Positions 4,793 to 54,964 of a DNA stretch of 64,000 nt are shown here, one piece after another. The position numbers and the translations under genes are program-made. This stretch comes from an uncultured Candidatus Saccharibacteria bacterium (GTDB lineage Bacteria; Patescibacteriota; Saccharimonadia; Saccharimonadales; JAGQNJ01): NCBI GenBank assembly GCA_964426755.1, contig CAYRRR010000002.1:1459-65458 (forward strand). Direction: 5' to 3'. Each line of letters starts with the position of its first letter. The stretch's first letter is position 1. The notes under the pieces are model-generated. The model was given only the letters and a program-made list of their open reading frames with translations, was not told the origin of the DNA and did not search any database.

Positions 4793-5721
4793 GGCTTTTT
4801 ATTATAATAGCCGCTCAGAAATGCTTTGATAGTCATCTCTTTTTTGCCGGCCGGTTTAAGTTTCTCAATACGCAGTGATCCATTTGAGGTCGCGACTGAC
4901 AGTGAAGCTGCTTCAGGTGTAACCGTTACATCGCCCGGAGCATCATCAGTGCTAATATTTGGGACAGTGTGTGCTTTGGTAATAATGACATCTTTGCCAA
5001 ATAAAGTTGTGCGACTGCCTGGCCAGTCAAGGTACGCACGTATCTCGCGTTCAATTTGTTCTGCAGGTTTATGCCAATCAATAATGCCGTCTTGCTTTGT
5101 TAGTTTTCTTGAATAAGTTGCTCTGTCTGGGTGCGGTTGCTGCCTAGGCTTGACCTCGCCTTTTATATATCTCGGTACATATTCGGCTAATAACTGGTGA
5201 CTGAGTATGATTAGCAGCTTGGTTAGTTCGGGCGTAGTGATTGATGCCGGCATAGCAAGAGTTTTTTGGGCAATAAGCTTGCCGGTATCCATACCGGCAT
5301 CAATAATCATTAAGCTTACACCGGTTTTAGTATCACCTGATAAAATTGCAAAGCTAATCGGATCGGCGCCGCGCCATCGAGGTAGAAGTGAAAAATGACT
5401 ATTAATAATTCCAAGTTCAAAATAATTAATGACTTTCTGACTGACAATAATGCCAAAATCAATTAAAATTGCCACTTCGCTCTTTAGCTGTCGGCTATCA
5501 ATCAAGTTATCAAGCTCGGCTTTATTTTGAGCCGTAAATGTTGGTAGCTGGAGCTGCTCGGCAGTTTCAATAACTGGTACTGAGCCTTTGTGATGTGAAG
5601 GGCGCGGTTTTGTTATCACTGCTTCGATAGAAAAATCAGCAGCTAGGAGCCGCAGCGACTCAGCGGCAACCGGTCCGCTACCAAAGAATACTATTGGCTT
5701 TGATATCTTTTTCATAATCAA
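4789..5721 (-). CDS. fmt: Methionyl-tRNA formyltransferase
   Basis: N-terminal VFFGSGPVAAESL, formyltransferase core (HFSLLPRWRGADPI) and a C-terminal Fmt domain. Overlaps the def stop, the typical def-fmt operon arrangement. Confidence 0.88.
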   Translation of the reverse strand: MIMKKISKPIVFFGSGPVAAESLRLLAADFSIEAVITKPRPSHHKGSVPVIETAEQLQLPTFTAQNKAELDNLIDSRQLKSEVAILIDFGIIVSQKVINYFELGIINSHFSLLPRWRGADPISFAILSGDTKTGVSLMIIDAGMDTGKLIAQKTLAMPASITTPELTKLLIILSHQLLAEYVPRYIKGEVKPRQQPHPDRATYSRKLTKQDGIIDWHKPAEQIEREIRAYLDWPGSRTTLFGKDVIITKAHTVPNISTDDAPGDVTVTPEAASLSVATSNGSLRIEKLKPAGKKEMTIKAFLSGYYNKKP

Positions 5722-6279: not shown

Positions 6280-8220
6280 TTATAACAGATGAGTAGGATC
6301 GATATCGTGTCTCCATCCGCTTGGCAGACTGCTAGCAATGGCAAGTAAGGAAGAGCGGTATGGTGATTTTACTACTAGCTGCCATCGGTAATTACCTTTA
6401 TGCTGTTCGTAGAATGAAGGTGTGGGCCCCAGAATAGAGATGTGCTCTCTCGAGAGAAGCTGAGCCTTAAGCGCGGTAGCAGCTCTTTGTGCTGCAGCGC
6501 GACTTTTTCTCGTAACTTCTAATTTGAGGAGGAAGCTAAACGGCGGAAAGCCATGTGTTTTACGGTGTGCGATTTGATCACTATAGAAATCATCCCAATT
6601 TTTATTGATTGCTTGTTGAATAAGTCGGCTATCAGGATCCAGAGTTTGAATGATAATACGACCATGAACGTGGCCACGGCCTACTCGGCCGATAGCTTGA
6701 CTGATTAGCTGGTAGGTGCGTTCCTCGGCTGTAAAATCAGGGAAGGAGAGGCTGGTGTCGGCGTCAGTAACCCCTACTAAACCCAAGCGGGGAATATCGA
6801 AGCCTTTGACCAAAATTTGTGTGCCAATTATGATATCGATTTTTCCGTCTTTAATGCGTTCAACTTGTTTGTCTAGTCGCTCGCTGGTTAGGTTATCACC
6901 GTCAAAACGGGCAATAGTTGCATTTTCAAACAGGTGCCTACATTCTTTCTCGAGTGCCTTTGTACCAGGTCCTAAAAACAATATGTCAGTATACGAGCAT
7001 TCAGGACAAGCGCTCGGCGCATTCGTTTTATATCCGCAGGTGTGACAGCGGAGCAAAAAGGTATCTTCATGGAGTGTAAGAGGCAAGTCACAGTGAGGGC
7101 ACCGTGCTCTCCAGCCACAATTGGGGCACATAATGATTCGGGCGCTTCCACGACGATTAAGAAATAAGAGTGATTGTTGCTTCGCTGTCAATTGTTCTCG
7201 TATGGCTTCAATCAGCGTATTGCTGAGGGCGCTCGATTGAGAGAACTCTTTTTTATCTAACCTGTTAACGATAGAAGTTTCGGTTTGGAGGGAAGCCTGC
7301 GTAATGGCACGTTCTGTTAAGCGAAGGATGGGGATGTCTTTTTGGTTTGCAATATATATATCGCTAATTTGGGGTGTGGCTGATCCAAAAATGACGCGAG
7401 CGTTGTGCAAAAACCCTAAGCGAGAAGCCACCCGCAATGCGTGGTACTGGGGTGCATTATCTTGTTTGTAGCTGTCGTCGTGACACTCGTCAACGATTAT
7501 GCAACCGAGGTTTTTAAACGGAGCAAAGAGTGCAGAACGAGGCCCAATTATAATCTGAGGAAGCGGGTTTTCTAAGATTTCTTGCCAGACGGCACGTCGT
7601 TGGGCGGGAGTTAAGCCGGAATGAATTACTTTAAGAGTTGAGGGACTAAAGGCAACTGATAAATCGGTTAATAAATGTGTTGTGAGTCCAATTTCGGGTA
7701 CCAGAACAAGTCCTGATTTATTGCGTCGTAAAGCATGTTGGAGCAACTCGATATAAATACGTGTTTTGCCGGTTGCGGTGTCACCGTGAAGAATGGTGGT
7801 ACCTTCGTGTTGCAAAATTGTATCGACAGCTTGTTGTTGCTTATTTGTAAGCGAGGGCAGCGGCTGGCTTGATTTTGCCGTATGCGTAATAGCTTGAGTC
7901 CGGGGTTTGGCTGGCCAATTAGATGGTAAAAATAACTGGGAAATACTTCCCGAGCTGGCCGGATAATAGCTGTTCATCCAATCAAGTAATCGCAAGCTTT
8001 CTAACGGCAGCTTACGATCAGCGCTAATTACCGCTTCAATTGGCTTGAGTGATATGCCTTTTGGCGCGGGGGCAGTCCGTTTAATCACACCAATTACATC
8101 ACGACGTCGTAAATTTATGCGGACAATACTACCCGGTAAGAGTACTTCAGGTGATGTATAGGTAAGGGGTGTTTTACCGTGGTAGGCGGTACTTCGTACC
8201 CAAACTTCATAGGTGTGCAT
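6280..8220 (-). CDS. priA: Primosomal protein N' (replication restart helicase)
   Basis: DECH helicase motifs (TGKTRIY, DECHD) and a Cys-rich zinc-binding insert (CPNCGWRARCPHCDLPLTLH...CHTCGY...CPEC). Start chosen at MHTYEVWV; a TATAAT sits 8 nt upstream on the minus strand. Confidence 0.85.
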   Translation of the reverse strand: MHTYEVWVRSTAYHGKTPLTYTSPEVLLPGSIVRINLRRRDVIGVIKRTAPAPKGISLKPIEAVISADRKLPLESLRLLDWMNSYYPASSGSISQLFLPSNWPAKPRTQAITHTAKSSQPLPSLTNKQQQAVDTILQHEGTTILHGDTATGKTRIYIELLQHALRRNKSGLVLVPEIGLTTHLLTDLSVAFSPSTLKVIHSGLTPAQRRAVWQEILENPLPQIIIGPRSALFAPFKNLGCIIVDECHDDSYKQDNAPQYHALRVASRLGFLHNARVIFGSATPQISDIYIANQKDIPILRLTERAITQASLQTETSIVNRLDKKEFSQSSALSNTLIEAIREQLTAKQQSLLFLNRRGSARIIMCPNCGWRARCPHCDLPLTLHEDTFLLRCHTCGYKTNAPSACPECSYTDILFLGPGTKALEKECRHLFENATIARFDGDNLTSERLDKQVERIKDGKIDIIIGTQILVKGFDIPRLGLVGVTDADTSLSFPDFTAEERTYQLISQAIGRVGRGHVHGRIIIQTLDPDSRLIQQAINKNWDDFYSDQIAHRKTHGFPPFSFLLKLEVTRKSRAAAQRAATALKAQLLSREHISILGPTPSFYEQHKGNYRWQLVVKSPYRSSLLAIASSLPSGWRHDIDPTHLL

Positions 8221-48070: not shown

Positions 48071-48493
48071 ATGAATCCGAATGACAAAGATACGAATGAT
48101 ACCTTGCCAAATACAAACACGCCACCAGCCGAGCCAGTACCAAATACTAATAACTTGAATGAGCCGGCAGCAGCTGCTCCGGTTGTTGCTGAGGACAATC
48201 TTGTTGCGTCAGCCGAGCCAGCGTCTCCTTCTCCGATGTTAAATACCGAGGAAACTAATAATTCGGCTGCTCCAAGCGCGACAGACAACCTAAGTCCCAA
48301 TACACCTGCTGGGGCACAAAGTAATGACAGCGGTAATCCGACTACACCTGCGGGCTTGCCTGCGGCTCCTCTTGGCGGCAGTTCACTGCCTGCTGCGACA
48401 ACCGGGCCAAAGTCAAAAAAGATGCTTACAATTACGCTCGTTGTACTGGGCGTACTGGTGCTCTTGGTCGTTCTCGGAATGGTTTTAGCGTAA
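48071..48493 (+). CDS. Hypothetical Pro/Ala/Asn-rich protein with C-terminal TM anchor
   Basis: Low-complexity PAN-rich sequence ending in LTITLVVLGVLVLLVVLGMVLA. Confidence 0.4.
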   Translation: MNPNDKDTNDTLPNTNTPPAEPVPNTNNLNEPAAAAPVVAEDNLVASAEPASPSPMLNTEETNNSAAPSATDNLSPNTPAGAQSNDSGNPTTPAGLPAAPLGGSSLPAATTGPKSKKMLTITLVVLGVLVLLVVLGMVLA

Positions 48494-49665: not shown

Positions 49666-50346
49666 ATGATTTTGTTAGATAGGGTAAGTAAGATCTACGG
49701 TAAAACAAATATCGCGCTTGATCGGGTAAGTCTTCATGTCCAACCGAAGGAGTTTGTGATCATAGTTGGCCCAAGCGGGGCCGGTAAATCAACGTTTCTT
49801 AAGTTGCTTACGCGCGAAGAACGTCCTTCAAATGGCAAGATAATTGTGGGTGGCATTGATTACGATCATCTTAAGGATAAGAAGATTCCTTTGCTGCGGC
49901 GTAAAATTGGGGTAGTATTTCAGGACTTTAAACTTCTGCCAAATAAAAATGTGTTTGAGAACGTAGCCTTTGCGCTAGAAATTGTAGGAATGGGTAATAA
50001 AGAAATCCAATACACGGTACCGCGCGTATTAAATATTGTAGGCCTAACCGGAAAAGAAAAAAGCTATCCAAAAGAATTGTCTGGGGGTGAACGACAGCGG
50101 GTAGCCATTGCTCGCTCAATAGCTCGACAGCCGAAAATTTTGATTGCCGATGAGCCAACAGGAAACTTAGATCCTAAACATGCCTGGGATGTCATTAAGG
50201 TGCTTGAAAAAATTAACCGTTACGGCACCACGGTACTGTTAACAACACACAATCAAGAAATAGTGAACAAGTTGAAGCGCCGGGTCATTACTATTAAGGC
50301 CGGTAAAGTAGTGGGTGACCGAATTGGTGGGGAGTATAAAACTTGA
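49666..50346 (+). CDS. ftsE: Cell division ABC ATPase FtsE
   Basis: Walker A GPSGAGKST, ABC signature LSGGERQR and Walker B ILIADEP. Ends in TGA. Confidence 0.9.
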   Translation: MILLDRVSKIYGKTNIALDRVSLHVQPKEFVIIVGPSGAGKSTFLKLLTREERPSNGKIIVGGIDYDHLKDKKIPLLRRKIGVVFQDFKLLPNKNVFENVAFALEIVGMGNKEIQYTVPRVLNIVGLTGKEKSYPKELSGGERQRVAIARSIARQPKILIADEPTGNLDPKHAWDVIKVLEKINRYGTTVLLTTHNQEIVNKLKRRVITIKAGKVVGDRIGGEYKT

Positions 50347-51290
50347 TGCGCCGGAGATTAATTACGTTATCTCGAATTTTAAAAGGTGGTTTAACCAATT
50401 TGATTCGTAATGCTTGGCTGACCGTAGCAGCAATTGCGGTCATGGTAATCACTCTTACGATTGTATTATTCTCGGTAATTGCCAATGCTACCTTTGCAAA
50501 TACTATTCAACAGATAACCGACAAAATAGATATATCGGTATATCTATTAGATGGTACGTCAGAAGAAGACAAGGATATGATTATTGAAGATCTACAGAAG
50601 TTTAATAATGTTCGGGAGGTCGTATACTTAACAAAAGAGCAAGCACGCGATGAATTTATTGAAAATAATGAAGATGATATTGACTTAAGGCTGTCAATTG
50701 CTCAAGCCGGCGAAAATCCTATTCCAGCCACGATTCGAATTAAACCGGTTGATGTAAACAAGCTAGAAGAACTTAACCAAGATATCAACAAGCAGAACTG
50801 GAGTGAATTTATACTCGAGATTTCTTACCAAAAAGATCGCAAAACGGCTATTGATAACATAGCTAATGCCACCACCTTCTTTAGAAAAGCGGGGGTAGCA
50901 GGGGTGGCGGTCTTCGCCCTTATCTCAATGCTGATTATCTTTAATACGTTAAGAATGGCTATCTTTAATCGACGCGAAGAACTTAATATTATGCGCTTGC
51001 TTGGGGCCAGTACCTCATACATACGCGGACCGTTTGTTGTCGAAACAGTAATGTATGGTATTGTAGCAGCGATAATATCCGTTGCTTTATGTAATGCAAT
51101 ATTCGTTGTTTCGTCAACAGCCTTTGGCGCAAGCAGTCTCGGATTATTGGACCTAACATTTGCAAATGAATATTTCGCAAAAAACTTCTGGAAAATCTTG
51201 GCCATACAATTAACCATCGGTATACTAATCGGGGGCGTTTCTTCATTAATTGCCACACGCCGCTATCTAAAATTTAAGACGTCAAAATAA
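50346..51290 (+). CDS. ftsX: Cell division permease FtsX
   Basis: Four-TM FtsX topology with a large extracellular loop. ATGA overlap with ftsE. Confidence 0.8.
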   Translation: MRRRLITLSRILKGGLTNLIRNAWLTVAAIAVMVITLTIVLFSVIANATFANTIQQITDKIDISVYLLDGTSEEDKDMIIEDLQKFNNVREVVYLTKEQARDEFIENNEDDIDLRLSIAQAGENPIPATIRIKPVDVNKLEELNQDINKQNWSEFILEISYQKDRKTAIDNIANATTFFRKAGVAGVAVFALISMLIIFNTLRMAIFNRREELNIMRLLGASTSYIRGPFVVETVMYGIVAAIISVALCNAIFVVSSTAFGASSLGLLDLTFANEYFAKNFWKILAIQLTIGILIGGVSSLIATRRYLKFKTSK

Positions 51291-51357: not shown

Positions 51358-52533
51358 TTGGAGGGCCATGATACAATGCTAACGGTTACATCACTAAAAC
51401 AAACAATTATGACTAAAATAAAATTGCTAACTAACAACGTTATTAAAACATCCAAAATAGGCTTGCTTGGGTTGGGTGCGTTGATTTTAATCGGCGGTTC
51501 GTTTGCTAGCATTAATATGGTACGAGCTCAGTCTTTACAAGATCAAATTAATGAATTAAAAAATCAAAATGCTCAAAATCGCAGTGCGGTCGAGAAATTA
51601 CGACAAATTGCAACAAGCTATCATAACGCGATAGAGGTACTTGAGCACGATATTGAGGAGACCGAGAAGGCGATCCAGGTTAGTACACAGCGCCAAGCAG
51701 AGCTTGAAAAGGCTATAGCTGAAGCCGAAGCCGAACTTGCACGTCAACAAAACCTCCTTGGTAAGAATATCCGAGCCATGTACGTAGAGGGTGATGTATC
51801 CACTTTAGTGATGCTAGCATCTAGTAAAGACCTCAGCGAATTCGTTGATAAACAACAATACCGTAACTCTGTTAAAAATAAAATCGTCTCAACCCTTACA
51901 AAGATTAATGAACTGAAGCATCAGCTAAAAACTCAAAAAGAACAAGTAGAAACAGAAATTAAAGAACAAAATAATAGTCGCGCACAGCTGGCCGCAGCAC
52001 GGAGTGAACAGGCAAGACTACTCTCAATGAACCAATCAGAGCAAGCAGAGTTTAATGCAAAAACGAAAGCTAACGAAGCTAAAATTCATGAATTGCAAGC
52101 CGCACAACGTGCTTTAGCGCGCAGTATTGCGTCAGGGAACTTTGTCAGTCAAGGGCCTGTTAAGCAGGGCGATACCATAGGGCGAGTTGGCAATACAGGC
52201 TTTTCGACTGGCGCTCATCTGCATTTTGAAGCCATAACTAGTGGCGGACAAGACGTTAATCCTAATAATTATATCGGTAACGGATGGATTCGTCCGGTTG
52301 AGGGTGGGTTTGTCTCGCAGGGCTATGGTGTTGCTAATAGTTGGTACGTAAAGGGGTATCATACCGGTATCGACTATGCCGGTGTTACTGGAAGGCCGGT
52401 TTTAGCTGCAGCAGATGGTGAAATTGTATGGCGCGGCTGCAAGGGTTCATGTAACGCAAGCTACGGTTACTATGTACTAATACGACATAATGATGGTATG
52501 TTTAGTCTATACGCACATATGCAAATACCTTGA
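51358..52533 (+). CDS. Coiled-coil M23 peptidase (EnvC/RipC-like FtsEX-associated hydrolase)
   Basis: N-terminal TM, long coiled-coil and a C-terminal LytM/M23 domain (GAHLHFE...GYH...ID). Confidence 0.78.
   Translation: MEGHDTMLTVTSLKQTIMTKIKLLTNNVIKTSKIGLLGLGALILIGGSFASINMVRAQSLQDQINELKNQNAQNRSAVEKLRQIATSYHNAIEVLEHDIEETEKAIQVSTQRQAELEKAIAEAEAELARQQNLLGKNIRAMYVEGDVSTLVMLASSKDLSEFVDKQQYRNSVKNKIVSTLTKINELKHQLKTQKEQVETEIKEQNNSRAQLAAARSEQARLLSMNQSEQAEFNAKTKANEAKIHELQAAQRALARSIASGNFVSQGPVKQGDTIGRVGNTGFSTGAHLHFEAITSGGQDVNPNNYIGNGWIRPVEGGFVSQGYGVANSWYVKGYHTGIDYAGVTGRPVLAAADGEIVWRGCKGSCNASYGYYVLIRHNDGMFSLYAHMQIP
51724..51927 (+). repeat. 204-bp direct repeat copy 1 (identical to 52863-53066)
   Basis: Nucleotide-for-nucleotide identity by inspection. 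Encodes AEAELARQQNLLGKNIRAMYVEGDVSTLVMLASSKDLSEFVDKQQYRNSVKNKIVSTLTKINELKHQL. Confidence 0.9.
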
Positions 52534-52544
52534 GGTAACAGACC

Positions 52545-53699
52545 ATGAAACAAATAAAGTTGTTCGCTCACAAAGAATATAAGCACTTCAGGCGAGCTCT
52601 TTGTTTCATTGCCGTATTATTAATGGTATGCACCAGTGGAGTTCCCGGATTGCAAAATGTGCGCGCTCAATCAATTCAAGACCAAATCCGAGCACTAGAG
52701 CGCGAGAATCAGCAAAATAGAAGTATTGTGCAGCGCTTAAGAGAAGAAGCAACCAGCTACGAAGACGCCATTAAGCGTTTGCAGGCAGAGATCGATACAC
52801 TCCAGGGGCAAATTGATATCAATATATCTGAGCAAGAACGGTTAAAGAAAGAAATAGAACTTGCCGAAGCCGAACTTGCACGTCAACAAAACCTCCTTGG
52901 TAAGAATATCCGAGCCATGTACGTAGAGGGTGATGTATCCACTTTAGTGATGCTAGCATCTAGTAAAGACCTCAGCGAATTCGTTGATAAACAACAATAC
53001 CGTAACTCTGTTAAAAATAAAATCGTCTCAACCCTTACAAAGATTAATGAACTGAAGCATCAGCTACGTGGACAGAAAGAGCAGATTGATAAGTTACTTA
53101 AGCAGCAAGTTGATCAACAAGCACAGCTTGCTAGCAGCCGATCTGAGCAACGAAATTTGCTATCGTTCAATCGAACACAGCAAGCTGAATTTAACGAAAA
53201 AACTAAACATAATCAAAACCGTATCGCTGAGCTGATAGCTGCTCAGCGGCGTGCGAATGATTCGGCATCGGGCATGCAATTTATACGTGTGCCAGGAGCT
53301 GTACGGACTCATGATAGTAACATTGACGATTATCCATACAAACACTATGGACATAGTCAAATTGATGAGCCATGTCCCGGTCCGCCACGAACGGCAGACT
53401 CAACTGACAGATGGGGTTACTGTACGCGCCAATGCGTCTCGTATGTTGCCTGGGCGATTGAGCGATCCGGTAGGGCTGCTCCACGAGGTTGGGGAGATGC
53501 CAAGAACTGGGTATGGATGGCTCCATCAAGCTGGATTGTATCGCATCCTGCTCCGGGAGATATCGCAGTTATAACGGCTGGAACATGGGGCCATGTTATG
53601 TATGTAGAGCGAGTCGAAGGAAGTAAAATTCTTGTTTCTGAATATAATCAGCGACTTGATGGCCGTTATCGAAACGATCGTTGGCTATCAATTAGATAG
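52545..53699 (+). CDS. Coiled-coil CHAP-domain amidase/peptidase (PcsB-like)
   Basis: Coiled-coil N-terminal part paralogous to the upstream gene. C-terminal CHAP (CTRQCVSYVAW..., GHVMYVE). Confidence 0.75.
   Translation: MKQIKLFAHKEYKHFRRALCFIAVLLMVCTSGVPGLQNVRAQSIQDQIRALERENQQNRSIVQRLREEATSYEDAIKRLQAEIDTLQGQIDINISEQERLKKEIELAEAELARQQNLLGKNIRAMYVEGDVSTLVMLASSKDLSEFVDKQQYRNSVKNKIVSTLTKINELKHQLRGQKEQIDKLLKQQVDQQAQLASSRSEQRNLLSFNRTQQAEFNEKTKHNQNRIAELIAAQRRANDSASGMQFIRVPGAVRTHDSNIDDYPYKHYGHSQIDEPCPGPPRTADSTDRWGYCTRQCVSYVAWAIERSGRAAPRGWGDAKNWVWMAPSSWIVSHPAPGDIAVITAGTWGHVMYVERVEGSKILVSEYNQRLDGRYRNDRWLSIR
52863..53066 (+). repeat. 204-bp direct repeat copy 2 (identical to 51724-51927)
   Basis: Same 204 nt as copy 1, sitting in the paralogous coiled-coil segment. 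Confidence 0.9.
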
Positions 53700-53764: not shown

Positions 53765-54964
53765 ATGGCGCCAAACAACCGGCTGCCAGCCAAAAAGCAC
53801 AAACTTCTAAAACTGAGCGTAATAGTTGCGGCATTTAGCTTGGTTTTTTTAACAGGTTTCGGTGTTGGTAGTGGTCAAATATCGTTCAGCGGCAATCAAT
53901 CGCATCAGACTGCGAAGCTGCCACCCAACTTAAATTATGGTTCAGTTGAGAAAATTTATGACCTTTTGCGCAAGCAATATGACGGCACACTGGAGGAAGG
54001 GGCGCTACTTGATGGATTAAAGCGTGGCATGGTTCAAGCAGCCGGTGATCCATATACGGAATACTTGTCGGCAGAGCAGGCCCGGGATTTTGATGAAGAG
54101 CTAAATGGTTCATTTAGTGGCATTGGCGCTGAACTAGGCAAAGAAGGGGATAGCATTGTTATTGTTGCTCCAATTGCTAATTTTCCGGCTCAAAAGGCAG
54201 GCTTGAAGGCTCGTGATGTCATAGTAGAAATTAACGGTGAGTCAGCCTATGGTCTTAGTATTAGCGAGGCAGTTCAGAAGATTAGGGGTCCACAAGATAC
54301 ACAGGTGAATCTAAAGGTTCTTCGCAATGAAAGCGAGCCGCTAGAGTTCACAATCACACGACAGCAAATTACAGTGCCAAGTGTGGAGTCAAAAAAACTG
54401 GAGGGTAACATCGGCTATATAAAAATTAGTCGTTTTTCAGATGATACAGCTTCACTTGCACGAGAAGCAGCCAACAGTTTAAAGGCAACAAAAATAAATG
54501 CGGTCATTCTTGATTTACGCGGTAATCCGGGTGGGCTACTTGATTCAGCAGTGGATATTTCAAGTTTATGGTTGCCCTCATCGCAAAAAGTACTTGAGGA
54601 AAAACGAGATAACGTCGTGATAAAAACATACTACGCAAATGGCAGTCCGGTATTGCAAGGTGTACCTACTATTGTGATGATTGATGGTGGTAGTGCGAGC
54701 GCCAGCGAGATTGTTGCCGGTGCCCTAAAGGATAATAATGCTGCGACGTTGCTTGGAGATACTTCATATGGCAAGGGTAGTGTACAATCTATAGAACGTC
54801 TGTCCGATGGGTCTGCGCTCAAAGTCACGATTGCACGATGGTTTACCCCAGGCGGACGTAATATTGATAAAGAAGGTATAGAACCAGACCAAAAAATTGA
54901 ACAAACAAATAGTTCAATAGAAGATAAACAGCTTGATGCAGCAATACGTGCACTACAAAAGTAA
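53765..54964 (+). CDS. ctpA: C-terminal processing protease (S41) with PDZ
   Basis: PDZ plus S41 motifs (LDLRGNPGGLLDS, catalytic Ser/Lys context). Confidence 0.85.
   Translation: MAPNNRLPAKKHKLLKLSVIVAAFSLVFLTGFGVGSGQISFSGNQSHQTAKLPPNLNYGSVEKIYDLLRKQYDGTLEEGALLDGLKRGMVQAAGDPYTEYLSAEQARDFDEELNGSFSGIGAELGKEGDSIVIVAPIANFPAQKAGLKARDVIVEINGESAYGLSISEAVQKIRGPQDTQVNLKVLRNESEPLEFTITRQQITVPSVESKKLEGNIGYIKISRFSDDTASLAREAANSLKATKINAVILDLRGNPGGLLDSAVDISSLWLPSSQKVLEEKRDNVVIKTYYANGSPVLQGVPTIVMIDGGSASASEIVAGALKDNNAATLLGDTSYGKGSVQSIERLSDGSALKVTIARWFTPGGRNIDKEGIEPDQKIEQTNSSIEDKQLDAAIRALQK

Follow-up and report, generated by a model that had tools for sequence, protein, structure and literature searches.

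Two adjacent genes located behind ftsEX in a Saccharibacteria genome encode cell-wall hydrolases with different catalytic domains, and they share a block of 204 nt that is identical at every nucleotide (51724-51927 and 52863-53066). Sequence comparisons strongly support gene conversion in this block. The account of the locus that we consider likely as a whole is that the two genes are old paralogues, and that the tip of their coiled-coil hairpins, a shared docking module for FtsX, is kept identical by recurrent interlocus gene conversion. Saccharibacteria (TM7) are episymbionts with tiny genomes. All positions are those of the window, the whole 64-kb stretch of DNA that was analysed, and all features described are on the forward (+) strand.

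The locus begins with ftsE (49666..50346), which encodes the ABC ATPase of FtsEX (Pfam ABC_tran, E=2.4e-36). Its position is kept in all related loci, and it overlaps the start of ftsX (50343..51290) by 4 nt. ftsX encodes the permease-like subunit (Pfam FtsX_ECD, 54 bits; FtsX, 48.5 bits) and scores 196.8 bits against NCBIfam FtsX_Gpos, under the cut-off of 225. The extracellular domain of FtsX (approximately residues 58-175, roughly 50514-50867) is presumed to be the docking site for both hydrolases. This domain exists as two discrete types, of which the window has the derived 'WIN-type', and the distribution of the types disagrees with the species tree.

Gene 1 (51376..52533, 385 amino acids) encodes a coiled-coil hairpin with a membrane anchor and, behind it, an M23 metallopeptidase domain in circularly permuted form (Pfam Peptidase_M23, 80.3 bits, cut-off 28.7). 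Its reading frame is open from the TTG at 51358, and the database protein (P0001, 100% identical) begins at the ATG at 51376. Gene 2 (52545..53699, 384 amino acids; P0057, 100% identical) starts 11 nt past the gene 1 stop codon and encodes a membrane-anchored coiled-coil hairpin with a CHAP cysteine peptidase/amidase domain (Pfam CHAP, 57.7 bits, cut-off 26). The CHAP domain occupies 53406..53648 (residues 288-368 in Pfam). Its conserved catalytic residues are C297 in the motif TRQC and H350 in the motif WGHV, and neither varies among 35 homologues. The downstream neighbour, given here as context only, is a gene for an S41 (CtpA/CtpB-like) PDZ protease (53765..54964; Pfam Peptidase_S41, E=3.8e-51, and PDZ), which is syntenic in all related loci. 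A preceding sequence-only reading of this DNA had placed ftsE and ftsX first, then an M23 and then a CHAP coiled-coil gene, and Pfam bears out this order. It had also regarded the M23 and CHAP pair as uncommon. Locally this is not so: the two genes are adjacent in at least 14 related Saccharibacteria genomes, and other Saccharibacteria carry only one of the two.

Pairwise comparison within the window gives 204 identical nucleotides out of 204, and identity ends at the immediately adjoining base on both sides. Both copies are in codon phase 0 and cover 68 codons each, corresponding to residues 117-184 of gene 1 (copy A, 51724..51927) and residues 107-174 of gene 2 (copy B, 52863..53066). Between the two genes, the nucleotide identity of aligned coiled-coil codons is 52% upstream of the block and 55% downstream, and the coiled coil outside the block has 44-55% amino acid identity. 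The paralogous but diverged coiled coils and the perfectly identical block are both as the sequence-only reading had described them. In relatives without recent conversion the block segment is 70-78% identical. When this identity is assumed, the chance of a run of 204 matches is 1e-22 to 1e-32. The block is the sole direct repeat of at least 40 nt across the 64-kb window. Its GC content shows no shift, and GC-biased conversion was dropped for this reason.

The nearest relative, L001 (GCA_964577565.1), has its own exact block of 200 nt at the same codons (alignment columns 130-196; 129-196 for the window block). Compared with the window block, the L001 block has 46 differences in 204 nt (77% identity). 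Within the tract, the paralogues are 100% identical in the window and 99% identical in L001, while every comparison between window and L001 gives 77%. For paralogues, the block has a dS of 0 in the window and of 0.048 in L001; for window and L001 orthologues, dS is at least 1.3 or saturated. As L001 carries an identical block of its own that is unlike the window's, the block evolves in concert, and conversion appears to be ongoing. Neighbor-joining trees give the same picture. In the block tree, paralogues pair by genome (bootstrap 100 for the window, 100 for L001, 80 for L089, 72 for L084, and 48 for L085). In the flank tree, pairing is always by gene type and the support for within-genome sisterhood is 0 everywhere; the M23-type and CHAP-type clades split before the divergence of all nine genomes.

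Exact blocks are found only in the two sister genomes, the window and L001. The related genome L084 has an exact run of 49 nt within the block segment. In the 12 other genomes with both genes, identity is raised but imperfect, the tips being 63-81% identical in amino acids; synonymous divergence of the tips is saturated or high in the nine of these 12 genomes that were analysed at the DNA level. The comparison of orthologous loci, which had been proposed as a check, turned up elevated identity in this segment beyond the window. The direction of conversion is less clear-cut: the window tip lies slightly nearer to the CHAP-type tips of three relatives (amino acid identity 0.76-0.78 versus 0.60-0.65), with no column fully diagnostic of direction. 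The loci of close relatives were obtained singly by exact protein look-up. A scan of genome contigs with the M23 alignment gave no close relative among the matches listed, which are dominated by the generic M23 motif. A scan of metagenome contigs with P0001 returned only relatives of at most 49% identity, nearly all of them with the CHAP gene alone after ftsX.

A perfect repeat in a metagenome-assembled contig may also arise when the assembler collapses or homogenises copies that truly differ. For either protein there is only one contig on record, and polishing is able to erase a few differences between near-identical repeats. The sequence-only reading had named such an artefact as what would overturn it. 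Several observations speak against it. GCA_964577565.1 is a separate assembly, and its version of the feature has a sequence of its own. A collapse would not leave flanks that are unique and in frame on both sides, as they are here. In two more read sets (SRR7082982 and SRR7082976), Logan contigs assembled with k=31 match the window at 100% identity and in both cases terminate at 51753, which is 30 nt (k-1) into the block. Since all 31-mers in the Logan contigs of one accession are distinct by construction (PMC12424806), a contig end at 51753 is what is expected from a true repeat starting at 51724. The artefact is largely refuted, and we consider it extremely improbable. Alternatively, the block could be kept identical without recombination, by purifying selection on the protein alone or by an embedded nucleotide element. 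Indeed, this segment is better conserved than the rest of the coiled coil in every relative (dN 0.13-0.26 in the block versus 0.38-1.0 in the flanks). However, codons for the same amino acid differ at synonymous sites in 0 of 68 cases in the window block and 1 of 67 in L001, whereas in relatives 14 of 43 to 30 of 50 (33-60%) of such codons differ in the block segment. Because synonymous sites are homogenised too, selection at the protein level alone is excluded; on these sequence data that part of the explanation is refuted. A constant DNA or RNA element does not agree with the 23% divergence between the window and L001 blocks, and searches of the window with Rfam and ARAGORN found nothing, giving no embedded RNA element. 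Together these explanations retain next to no probability. Another alternative is that each genome independently acquired the block not long ago by insertion or domain shuffling, through a mobile 'tip cassette' or a new partial duplication. The tandem layout eases unequal exchange, and the CHAP gene plausibly came from duplication of the coiled coil with a swap of the catalytic domain. Nevertheless, the genes are colinear along the whole coiled coil, the block borders have no indels, the block replaces homologous codons one for one, and no other copy of it is seen within the 64-kb window. The flank trees also place the parting of the two gene types before the nine genomes diverged. A shuffle is very unlikely.

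The position of the block in the proteins can be read from AlphaFold models. The gene 1 model has helix I (residues 49-139), a short helix (143-149), helix II (154-252), and then a beta domain. The gene 2 model has helix I (44-126), a short helix (133-139), and helix II (143-242). Copy A takes in 23 residues at the end of helix I, the lip (140-153), and 31 residues at the start of helix II. Copy B likewise runs from the closing part of helix I across the lip into the opening part of helix II. The block is therefore the hairpin tip in both models, with a low pLDDT (48-62) for the lip. The top Foldseek matches of gene 1 are 8tzl_E (FtsEX-EnvC) and 6tpi_A (EnvC-FtsX), and that of gene 2 is PcsB (4cgk, E=7e-7).

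Structures of homologous systems indicate what such a tip may do. EnvC contacts FtsX through residues 114-128 and 141-160, and the sites predicted for PcsB (residues 101-114 and 130-148) lie on either side of the lip (PMC7668044). RipC binds FtsX via residues 102-109, the lip, and residues 129-148 (PMC10694151). As the published contact sites of EnvC and RipC are the same kind of segment, the block is read as the FtsX-docking tip. hhalign places residues 72-141 of E. coli EnvC onto alignment positions 35-104 with a probability of only 41%. At this probability, the first EnvC site (114-128) maps to QNLLGKNIRAMYVEG, inside the block (positions 69-136). The alignment stops at the first residue of the second site (141-160); by the same offset, the rest of this site would map to the following residues, also within positions 69-136. 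A search of PDB sequences with the coiled-coil profile was dropped for residue mapping, as it was swamped by generic coiled coils. We infer from the models and from homology that the block is the FtsX-interacting segment of both hydrolases.

The following scenario would connect these observations. The M23 and CHAP genes, 11 nt apart behind ftsEX, would be descendants of an old duplication, each encoding a membrane-anchored antiparallel coiled-coil hairpin, with an M23 metallo-endopeptidase on one and a CHAP domain on the other. The tip would be the most constrained segment and hence the most similar between copies. In the lineage of the window and L001, recurrent intragenomic conversion would keep the 68 tip codons identical in DNA, with fixed borders. 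The homogenised tip would be the only stretch identical enough for homologous recombination, and the flanks, about 50% identical, would end the tracts at one place. Such a self-perpetuating island of homology is probably the simplest account of why the borders are fixed. If it works as in the homologous EnvC, RipC, and PcsB, the tip would be clamped between two FtsX extracellular domains, so that both enzymes may offer the same docking module to a single FtsEX complex. FtsEX binds its hairpin partner with a stoichiometry of 2:2:1 (PMC11627006). With one hairpin per FtsE2X2, the two enzymes would alternate or compete, and both hydrolases may be switched on by the same ATP-driven movement.

The sequence-only reading had left a choice between gene conversion and homogenising selection. 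Conversion stands, on the dS values and the trees. Selection, in the form of adaptive homogenisation, would mean that identical tips are favoured because they match two different hydrolases to one FtsEX. It would perhaps follow a change of the FtsX extracellular domain, with conversion spreading the adapted tip to the second gene. Several points agree with this. Between two lineages with saturated synonymous sites, the borders differ by no more than one codon, and the block coincides with the presumed docking module. In several genomes, lineage-specific residues are common to both tips, such as NIRTMY in both L117 genes and SSNN...KEKIS in both tips of L084. In prokaryotes, subunits of stable complexes are enriched for concerted evolution (PMC6053082), which would favour it as well. 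Moreover, the longest exact runs (204, 200, and 49 nt) belong to three genomes that all have the derived FtsX extracellular domain. The association of derived domain and homogenised tips was rejected, however, as it held in these three genomes and failed in a fourth lineage with the derived FtsX (FtsX P0125, M23 P0010, CHAP P0242), where the tips are identical at only 48 of 68 residues. Tips are much alike regardless of the FtsX domain type, and flanks whose identity falls to about 50% account for the fixed borders equally well. The 12 genomes that retain both enzymes with non-identical tips (63-81%) indicate that identity is not required for the two-enzyme arrangement, and they are some evidence against homogenising selection, which the data do not need. 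We regard adaptive homogenisation as possible but rather unlikely. It is also doubtful that the identical tip is a selected, exchangeable adaptor, by which one FtsEX drives M23 and CHAP chemistries via the same plug and conversion tracks a changeable FtsX domain. If true, this would be a concrete case of conversion as a mechanism of co-evolution for a protein-protein interface in a minimal-genome bacterium.

For gene conversion between old paralogues at a presumed FtsX-docking tip, the closest known case is that of mtrA-1/mtrA-2 in methanogens (PMC4632066). These are likewise tandem paralogues from an old duplication, set apart by one fused domain, and their shared domain is homogenised by repeated conversion. 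As in prokaryotic complex subunits, whose concerted evolution is long-lasting (PMC6053082), paralogues are closer than orthologues in the domain concerned, and the proteins act in a complex. The window tract differs in that it is only 204 nt long and covers a sub-domain, the hairpin tip, rather than a whole domain. Here only a single shallow lineage of two genomes is perfectly homogenised, and other genomes show weaker traces. Events of this kind are thus already known, and the present case is clean but not unprecedented, with conversion confined to one protein module. In the library of literature searched, there is no report of gene conversion among peptidoglycan hydrolase paralogues or FtsEX hydrolases.

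Known FtsEX partners resemble the two genes to different degrees. EnvC of E. coli, P. aeruginosa, and V. cholerae (PDB 6TPI, 8I6O, 8TZL) is, like gene 1, encoded next to ftsEX, and it has an N-terminal antiparallel coiled-coil hairpin, a short lip helix, and a C-terminal M23/LytM-fold domain. EnvC is, however, a catalytically dead activator of AmiA and AmiB, whereas gene 1 has HxxxD and HxH in a permuted M23 domain and scores 15.3 bits against NCBIfam EnvC (cut-off 270). PcsB of Streptococcus pneumoniae (4CGK) has, like gene 2, a coiled coil and a CHAP domain, and its hydrolase is FtsX-dependent. Gene 2 is PcsB-like in architecture (CHAP at 57.7 bits, Foldseek match to 4cgk) but is not a sequence equivalog. 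Gene 2 is distant from PcsB in sequence (NCBIfam PcsB NF046104, 57.4 bits, cut-off 450; phmmer E=0.11 against 4cgk). In addition, PcsB is the sole FtsEX partner in pneumococcus, while here a presumed second partner with the same tip adjoins. In FtsEX-RipC of Mycobacterium tuberculosis (8IDC) and FtsEX-CwlO of Bacillus subtilis, hydrolase activity resides in the coiled-coil protein itself, which stays autoinhibited until FtsEX acts on it. The lip of RipC and the adjoining ends of alpha1 and alpha2 bind two FtsX extracellular domains. The catalytic domain of RipC and CwlO is NlpC/P60, unlike the M23 and CHAP domains here, and for them no pair of paralogues with a converted tip is described.

The block marks a module of 68 residues that evolution has treated as a unit in two otherwise diverged enzymes. 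If this module is the FtsX-docking tip, as homology suggests, it leads to a precise hypothesis of how one FtsEX could control two hydrolases in Saccharibacteria. The locus also serves well for teaching, as a clean case of concerted evolution within one module that both an independent relative and the assembly graphs support.

Another feature of the locus is the M23 domain of gene 1 (52144..52530), which Pfam M23 matches in two stretches. Gene 1 belongs to Peptidase M23 (PF01551) by score, with the order of the halves reversed from the canonical HxxxD ... HxH: the HxH half (GAHLHFE, 52210-52230) precedes the HxxxD half (GYHTGIDYA, 52354-52380). A profile search of the PDB agrees, aligning query residues 302-381 with residues 220-297 of 3slu and query residues 255-295 with residues 301-340. 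The reversed order of the halves implies that the domain is circularly permuted. Both metal motifs, HxxxD (HTGID) and HxH (HLH), are intact, H281, H283, H329, and D333 are invariant in 42 homologues, and pLDDT is 88-94 across most of the domain. Because HxxxD and HxH are retained, the M23 protein of gene 1 probably has enzyme activity of its own and is not an activator of amidases. The description of gene 1 as an EnvC/RipC-like M23 peptidase is therefore apt for its EnvC architecture, and not for the identity of an EnvC-type activator, given the kept metal motifs and the permutation. No report of a circularly permuted M23/LytM domain was found within the library of literature searched. For cell-wall specialists, this permuted domain and the existence of two FtsX extracellular domain types may outlast the conversion in interest. 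Permuted but apparently active M23 domains are found in Patescibacteria (CPR) lineages.

Two adjacent genes on the + strand follow ftsE and ftsX in the window. Gene 1 (51376-52533) encodes a coiled coil and a Peptidase_M23 domain; gene 2 (52545-53699), which starts 11 nt after the gene 1 stop, encodes a coiled coil and a CHAP domain (both Pfam). Within the coiled coils, copy A of a 204-nt block (51724-51927, + strand, gene 1 residues 117-184) and copy B (52863-53066, + strand, gene 2 residues 107-174) match at 204 of 204 nt in a direct comparison, and the 100% identity claimed by the sequence-only reading is thus borne out. The borders are sharp: the first base outside mismatches on each side, and both copies start in codon phase 0. 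In the same register, the flanking coiled-coil codons of the two genes are 52% identical upstream and 55% downstream at the nucleotide level, and 44-55% identical in amino acids. A repeat search of the whole 64-kb window with a 40-nt minimum finds the block as the sole direct repeat. If the 70-78% identity that relatives have in this segment is taken as the background, 204 consecutive matches would still have a probability of only 1e-22 to 1e-32.

An identical repeat could be an assembly artefact. This explanation is rejected on two grounds. The closest relative found, L001 (GCA_964577565.1; M23 protein 87% identical), carries an exact 200-nt block of its own in the same codon positions (columns 130-196 of the alignment vs. 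129-196 in the window), which is the orthologous tract that the sequence-only reading had proposed to look for. In addition, two Logan contigs, one from each of the separate runs SRR7082982 and SRR7082976, match the window at 100% identity until they end at 51753, exactly 30 nt inside the block. Because all 31-mers are distinct within the Logan contigs of one accession by construction (PMC12424806), a contig entering a true repeat must end k-1 = 30 nt inside it. With the two contigs assembled independently (k=31) from the same organism, the break is a read-graph check on the repeat, and at the level of the assembly graph the repeat is supported. It also explains why the hydrolase proteins are each recorded on one contig and FtsX on three.

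Gene conversion, one of the two origins first suggested for the block, is supported by substitution patterns, by trees, and by the block of L001. Compared between the window and L001, the block has 46 differences in 204 nt; its 77% identity is in line with that of the orthologous flanks (73-84%), and the two copies within a genome match at 204/204 nt in the window and 201/204 in L001. Between paralogues, dS in the block is 0 in the window and 0.048 in L001, while between window and L001 orthologues it is at least 1.3 or saturated. The 46 differences correspond to about 55 substitutions (Jukes-Cantor), and the 95% upper bound for zero differences in 204 nt is about 3. The last homogenisation in each genome is therefore no older than roughly 5% of the age of their split, a figure that is conservative because synonymous sites are saturated. 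Homogenisation this recent in both lineages, and borders no more than one codon apart, speak for a maintained island converted time and again, and against two isolated events. Protein-level selection alone is rejected, since it cannot account for identity at synonymous sites. The normal rate at which the block diverges between species also excludes a conserved DNA or RNA element. No GC shift was found in the block.

Neighbour-joining trees of block and flanks are discordant. In the flank trees the M23-type and CHAP-type clades are older than all nine genomes, and within-genome sisterhood has a bootstrap of 0 everywhere. In the block tree the paralogues are sisters with bootstraps of 100 in the window, 100 in L001, 80 in L089, 72 in L084, and 48 in L085. 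L084, a genome of a different sub-clade, has a 49-nt exact run between its M23 and CHAP paralogues (5443-5491 and 6584-6632) inside the same segment, probably a conversion tract that is shorter or older. Domain-restricted gene conversion is reported for mtrA-1 and mtrA-2, tandem paralogues differing in a fused domain (PMC4632066), and subunits of complexes are reported to be overrepresented among prokaryotic cases of concerted evolution (PMC6053082). The block of genes 1 and 2 resembles the mtrA case, the system here being the FtsEX hydrolase partners of Saccharibacteria, for which no report of such conversion was found in the literature searched. It is a solid and instructive case of a known kind of conversion, not a new principle.

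The AlphaFold2 models have helix I at residues 49-139, a short helix at 143-149, and helix II at 154-252 in gene 1 (44-126, 133-139, and 143-242 in gene 2). By these limits the block is the tip of the hairpin, made of the final 20-23 residues of helix I, the lip, and the initial 31-32 residues of helix II. The best Foldseek matches of gene 1 are FtsEX-EnvC (8tzl_E, E=1e-5) and EnvC-FtsX (6tpi_A). Gene 2 best matches PcsB (4cgk, E=7e-7) and then 8tzl_E, and FtsEX-RipC (8idc_E) is also among its matches. FtsX extracellular domains clamp EnvC at residues 114-128 and 141-160, and the PcsB sites are predicted at 101-114 and 130-148 (PMC7668044); those of RipC are 102-109, the lip, and 129-148 (PMC10694151). 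The segment clamped in the EnvC and RipC complexes is of the same kind as the block. With a probability of only 41%, hhalign aligns E. coli EnvC 72-141 to positions 35-104 of the coiled-coil profile, placing EnvC site 1 on QNLLGKNIRAMYVEG. The alignment ends at the first residue of site 2, the rest of which is placed on the following residues by extending the offset; so placed, both sites fall within the block (profile positions 69-136). By analogy with these complexes, an FtsX-docking role of the block can be inferred on good grounds.

With identical tips the two enzymes would share one FtsEX by docking in turn, and the same ATP-driven movement would free both from autoinhibition; one hairpin is bound per FtsE2X2 (PMC11627006). 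The identity itself is produced by recombination. As the most constrained segment, the tip would be the most alike between copies, and once homogenised it would be the sole substrate left for homologous recombination. With flanks about 50% identical, every tract would end at the same place, which is the simplest account of the fixed borders. Outside the window and L001, the tip is 67-78% identical between paralogues in the nine genomes analysed at the nucleotide level, vs. 39-60% in the flanks, with dN of 0.13-0.26 vs. 0.38-1.0. Selection may also favour identical tips, and in some genomes both tips have lineage-specific residues in common (e.g., NIRTMY in L117). However, among 14 genomes carrying both genes (11 examined at the DNA level and three more, presumed M23/CHAP pairs, at the protein level), only the window and L001 have the perfect block. 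The other 12 do without identical tips (63-81% amino-acid identity), and a correlation of tip homogenisation with FtsX type failed. Thus, of the earlier suggestion of conversion or homogenising selection, the conversion stands and the selection is weakened.

The FtsX extracellular domain exists as two discrete types without intermediates. A derived type (about 50640-50860, FtsX residues about 100-172) is shared by the window, L001, and L084, which are 72-93% identical to one another and at most 47% to the common type. It comprises 19 protein clusters (P0121-P0139), 60-100% identical to the window. Within the clade the common type is 72-99% conserved, and among the fetched loci of distant Saccharibacteria it can still be recognised (46% or more). 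L084 does not group as sister of the window and L001 when PrfB, FtsE, Ctp, and PyrG are concatenated for a tree, and the domain is thus distributed in conflict with the species tree. This suggests that the ftsX segment was exchanged between lineages or evolved very fast. The window, L001, and L084 are also the three genomes with the longest exact runs, but in a fourth derived-type lineage (FtsX P0125, M23 P0010, CHAP P0242) the tips agree at only 48 of 68 residues, and for this reason the association is not regarded as established.

Both proteins are membrane-anchored. The HTGID and HLH motifs of gene 1 are intact and invariant in 42 homologues, as are Cys297 and His350 of gene 2 in 35. Both are thus likely to act as hydrolases themselves, in the manner of PcsB, RipC, and CwlO. 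The M23 protein had been called EnvC/RipC-like, which agrees with EnvC complexes as its best structural matches, but with its metal-binding motifs intact it is probably not an EnvC-type activator. Its M23 domain (52144-52530, + strand, residues 257-385; pLDDT 88-94 over most of its length) is circularly permuted, the HxH half (GAHLHFE) preceding the HxxxD half (GYHTGIDYA). A profile of the 42 homologues aligns to canonical M23 (3slu) with 302-381 on 220-297 and 255-295 on 301-340, and the Pfam match likewise falls in two stretches of swapped order. All fetched coiled-coil M23 genes of Saccharibacteria have the permuted order, as does one Berkelbacteria locus, while the Firmicutes and cyanobacterial M23 genes in the fetched loci have the canonical order. 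No published description of such a domain was found in the literature searched. The permuted domain is seen also in L001, L005, L007, L009, and L082-L092.

Source names of homologues mark the organism as a Candidatus Saccharibacteria bacterium. The locus runs from an M16 peptidase gene through a small Pro/Ala-rich ORF, prfB, ftsE, ftsX, gene 1, and gene 2 to an S41/PDZ protease, pyrG, and a response regulator. This order is maintained in the related loci fetched, where secA is found 5' of the M16 peptidase. The small ORF between the M16 peptidase gene and prfB (48071-48493, + strand) encodes a Pro/Ala/Thr/Asn-rich product of 140 aa with a C-terminal hydrophobic anchor and no Pfam match; it has 131 aa in L001 and 89 aa in L085, and is missing in L082 and L084. 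GC skew is positive over the entire window (1-64000), and large ORFs around the locus are almost all on the + strand. No tRNA genes or Rfam families (gathering threshold) were found in the 64-kb window. Among the Saccharibacteria-like loci fetched with coiled-coil genes 3' of ftsX, 25 have CHAP alone, eight M23 alone, and 12 both. The side-by-side arrangement, initially thought uncommon, is therefore a feature of one clade and not rare within it. Two tandem M23 genes, only one of which matches the coiled-coil query, follow ftsX in Clostridium sp. CAG:389 (L010) and a Clostridia MAG (L012), so two hydrolase-like genes after ftsEX are not unique to Saccharibacteria. P0070 and P0083, for both of which the longest contig is given as 321563, are distinct coiled-coil CHAP proteins that appear to share one contig with FtsX P0151. 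In a further lineage of Saccharibacteria they may form a pair of CHAP/CHAP paralogues.
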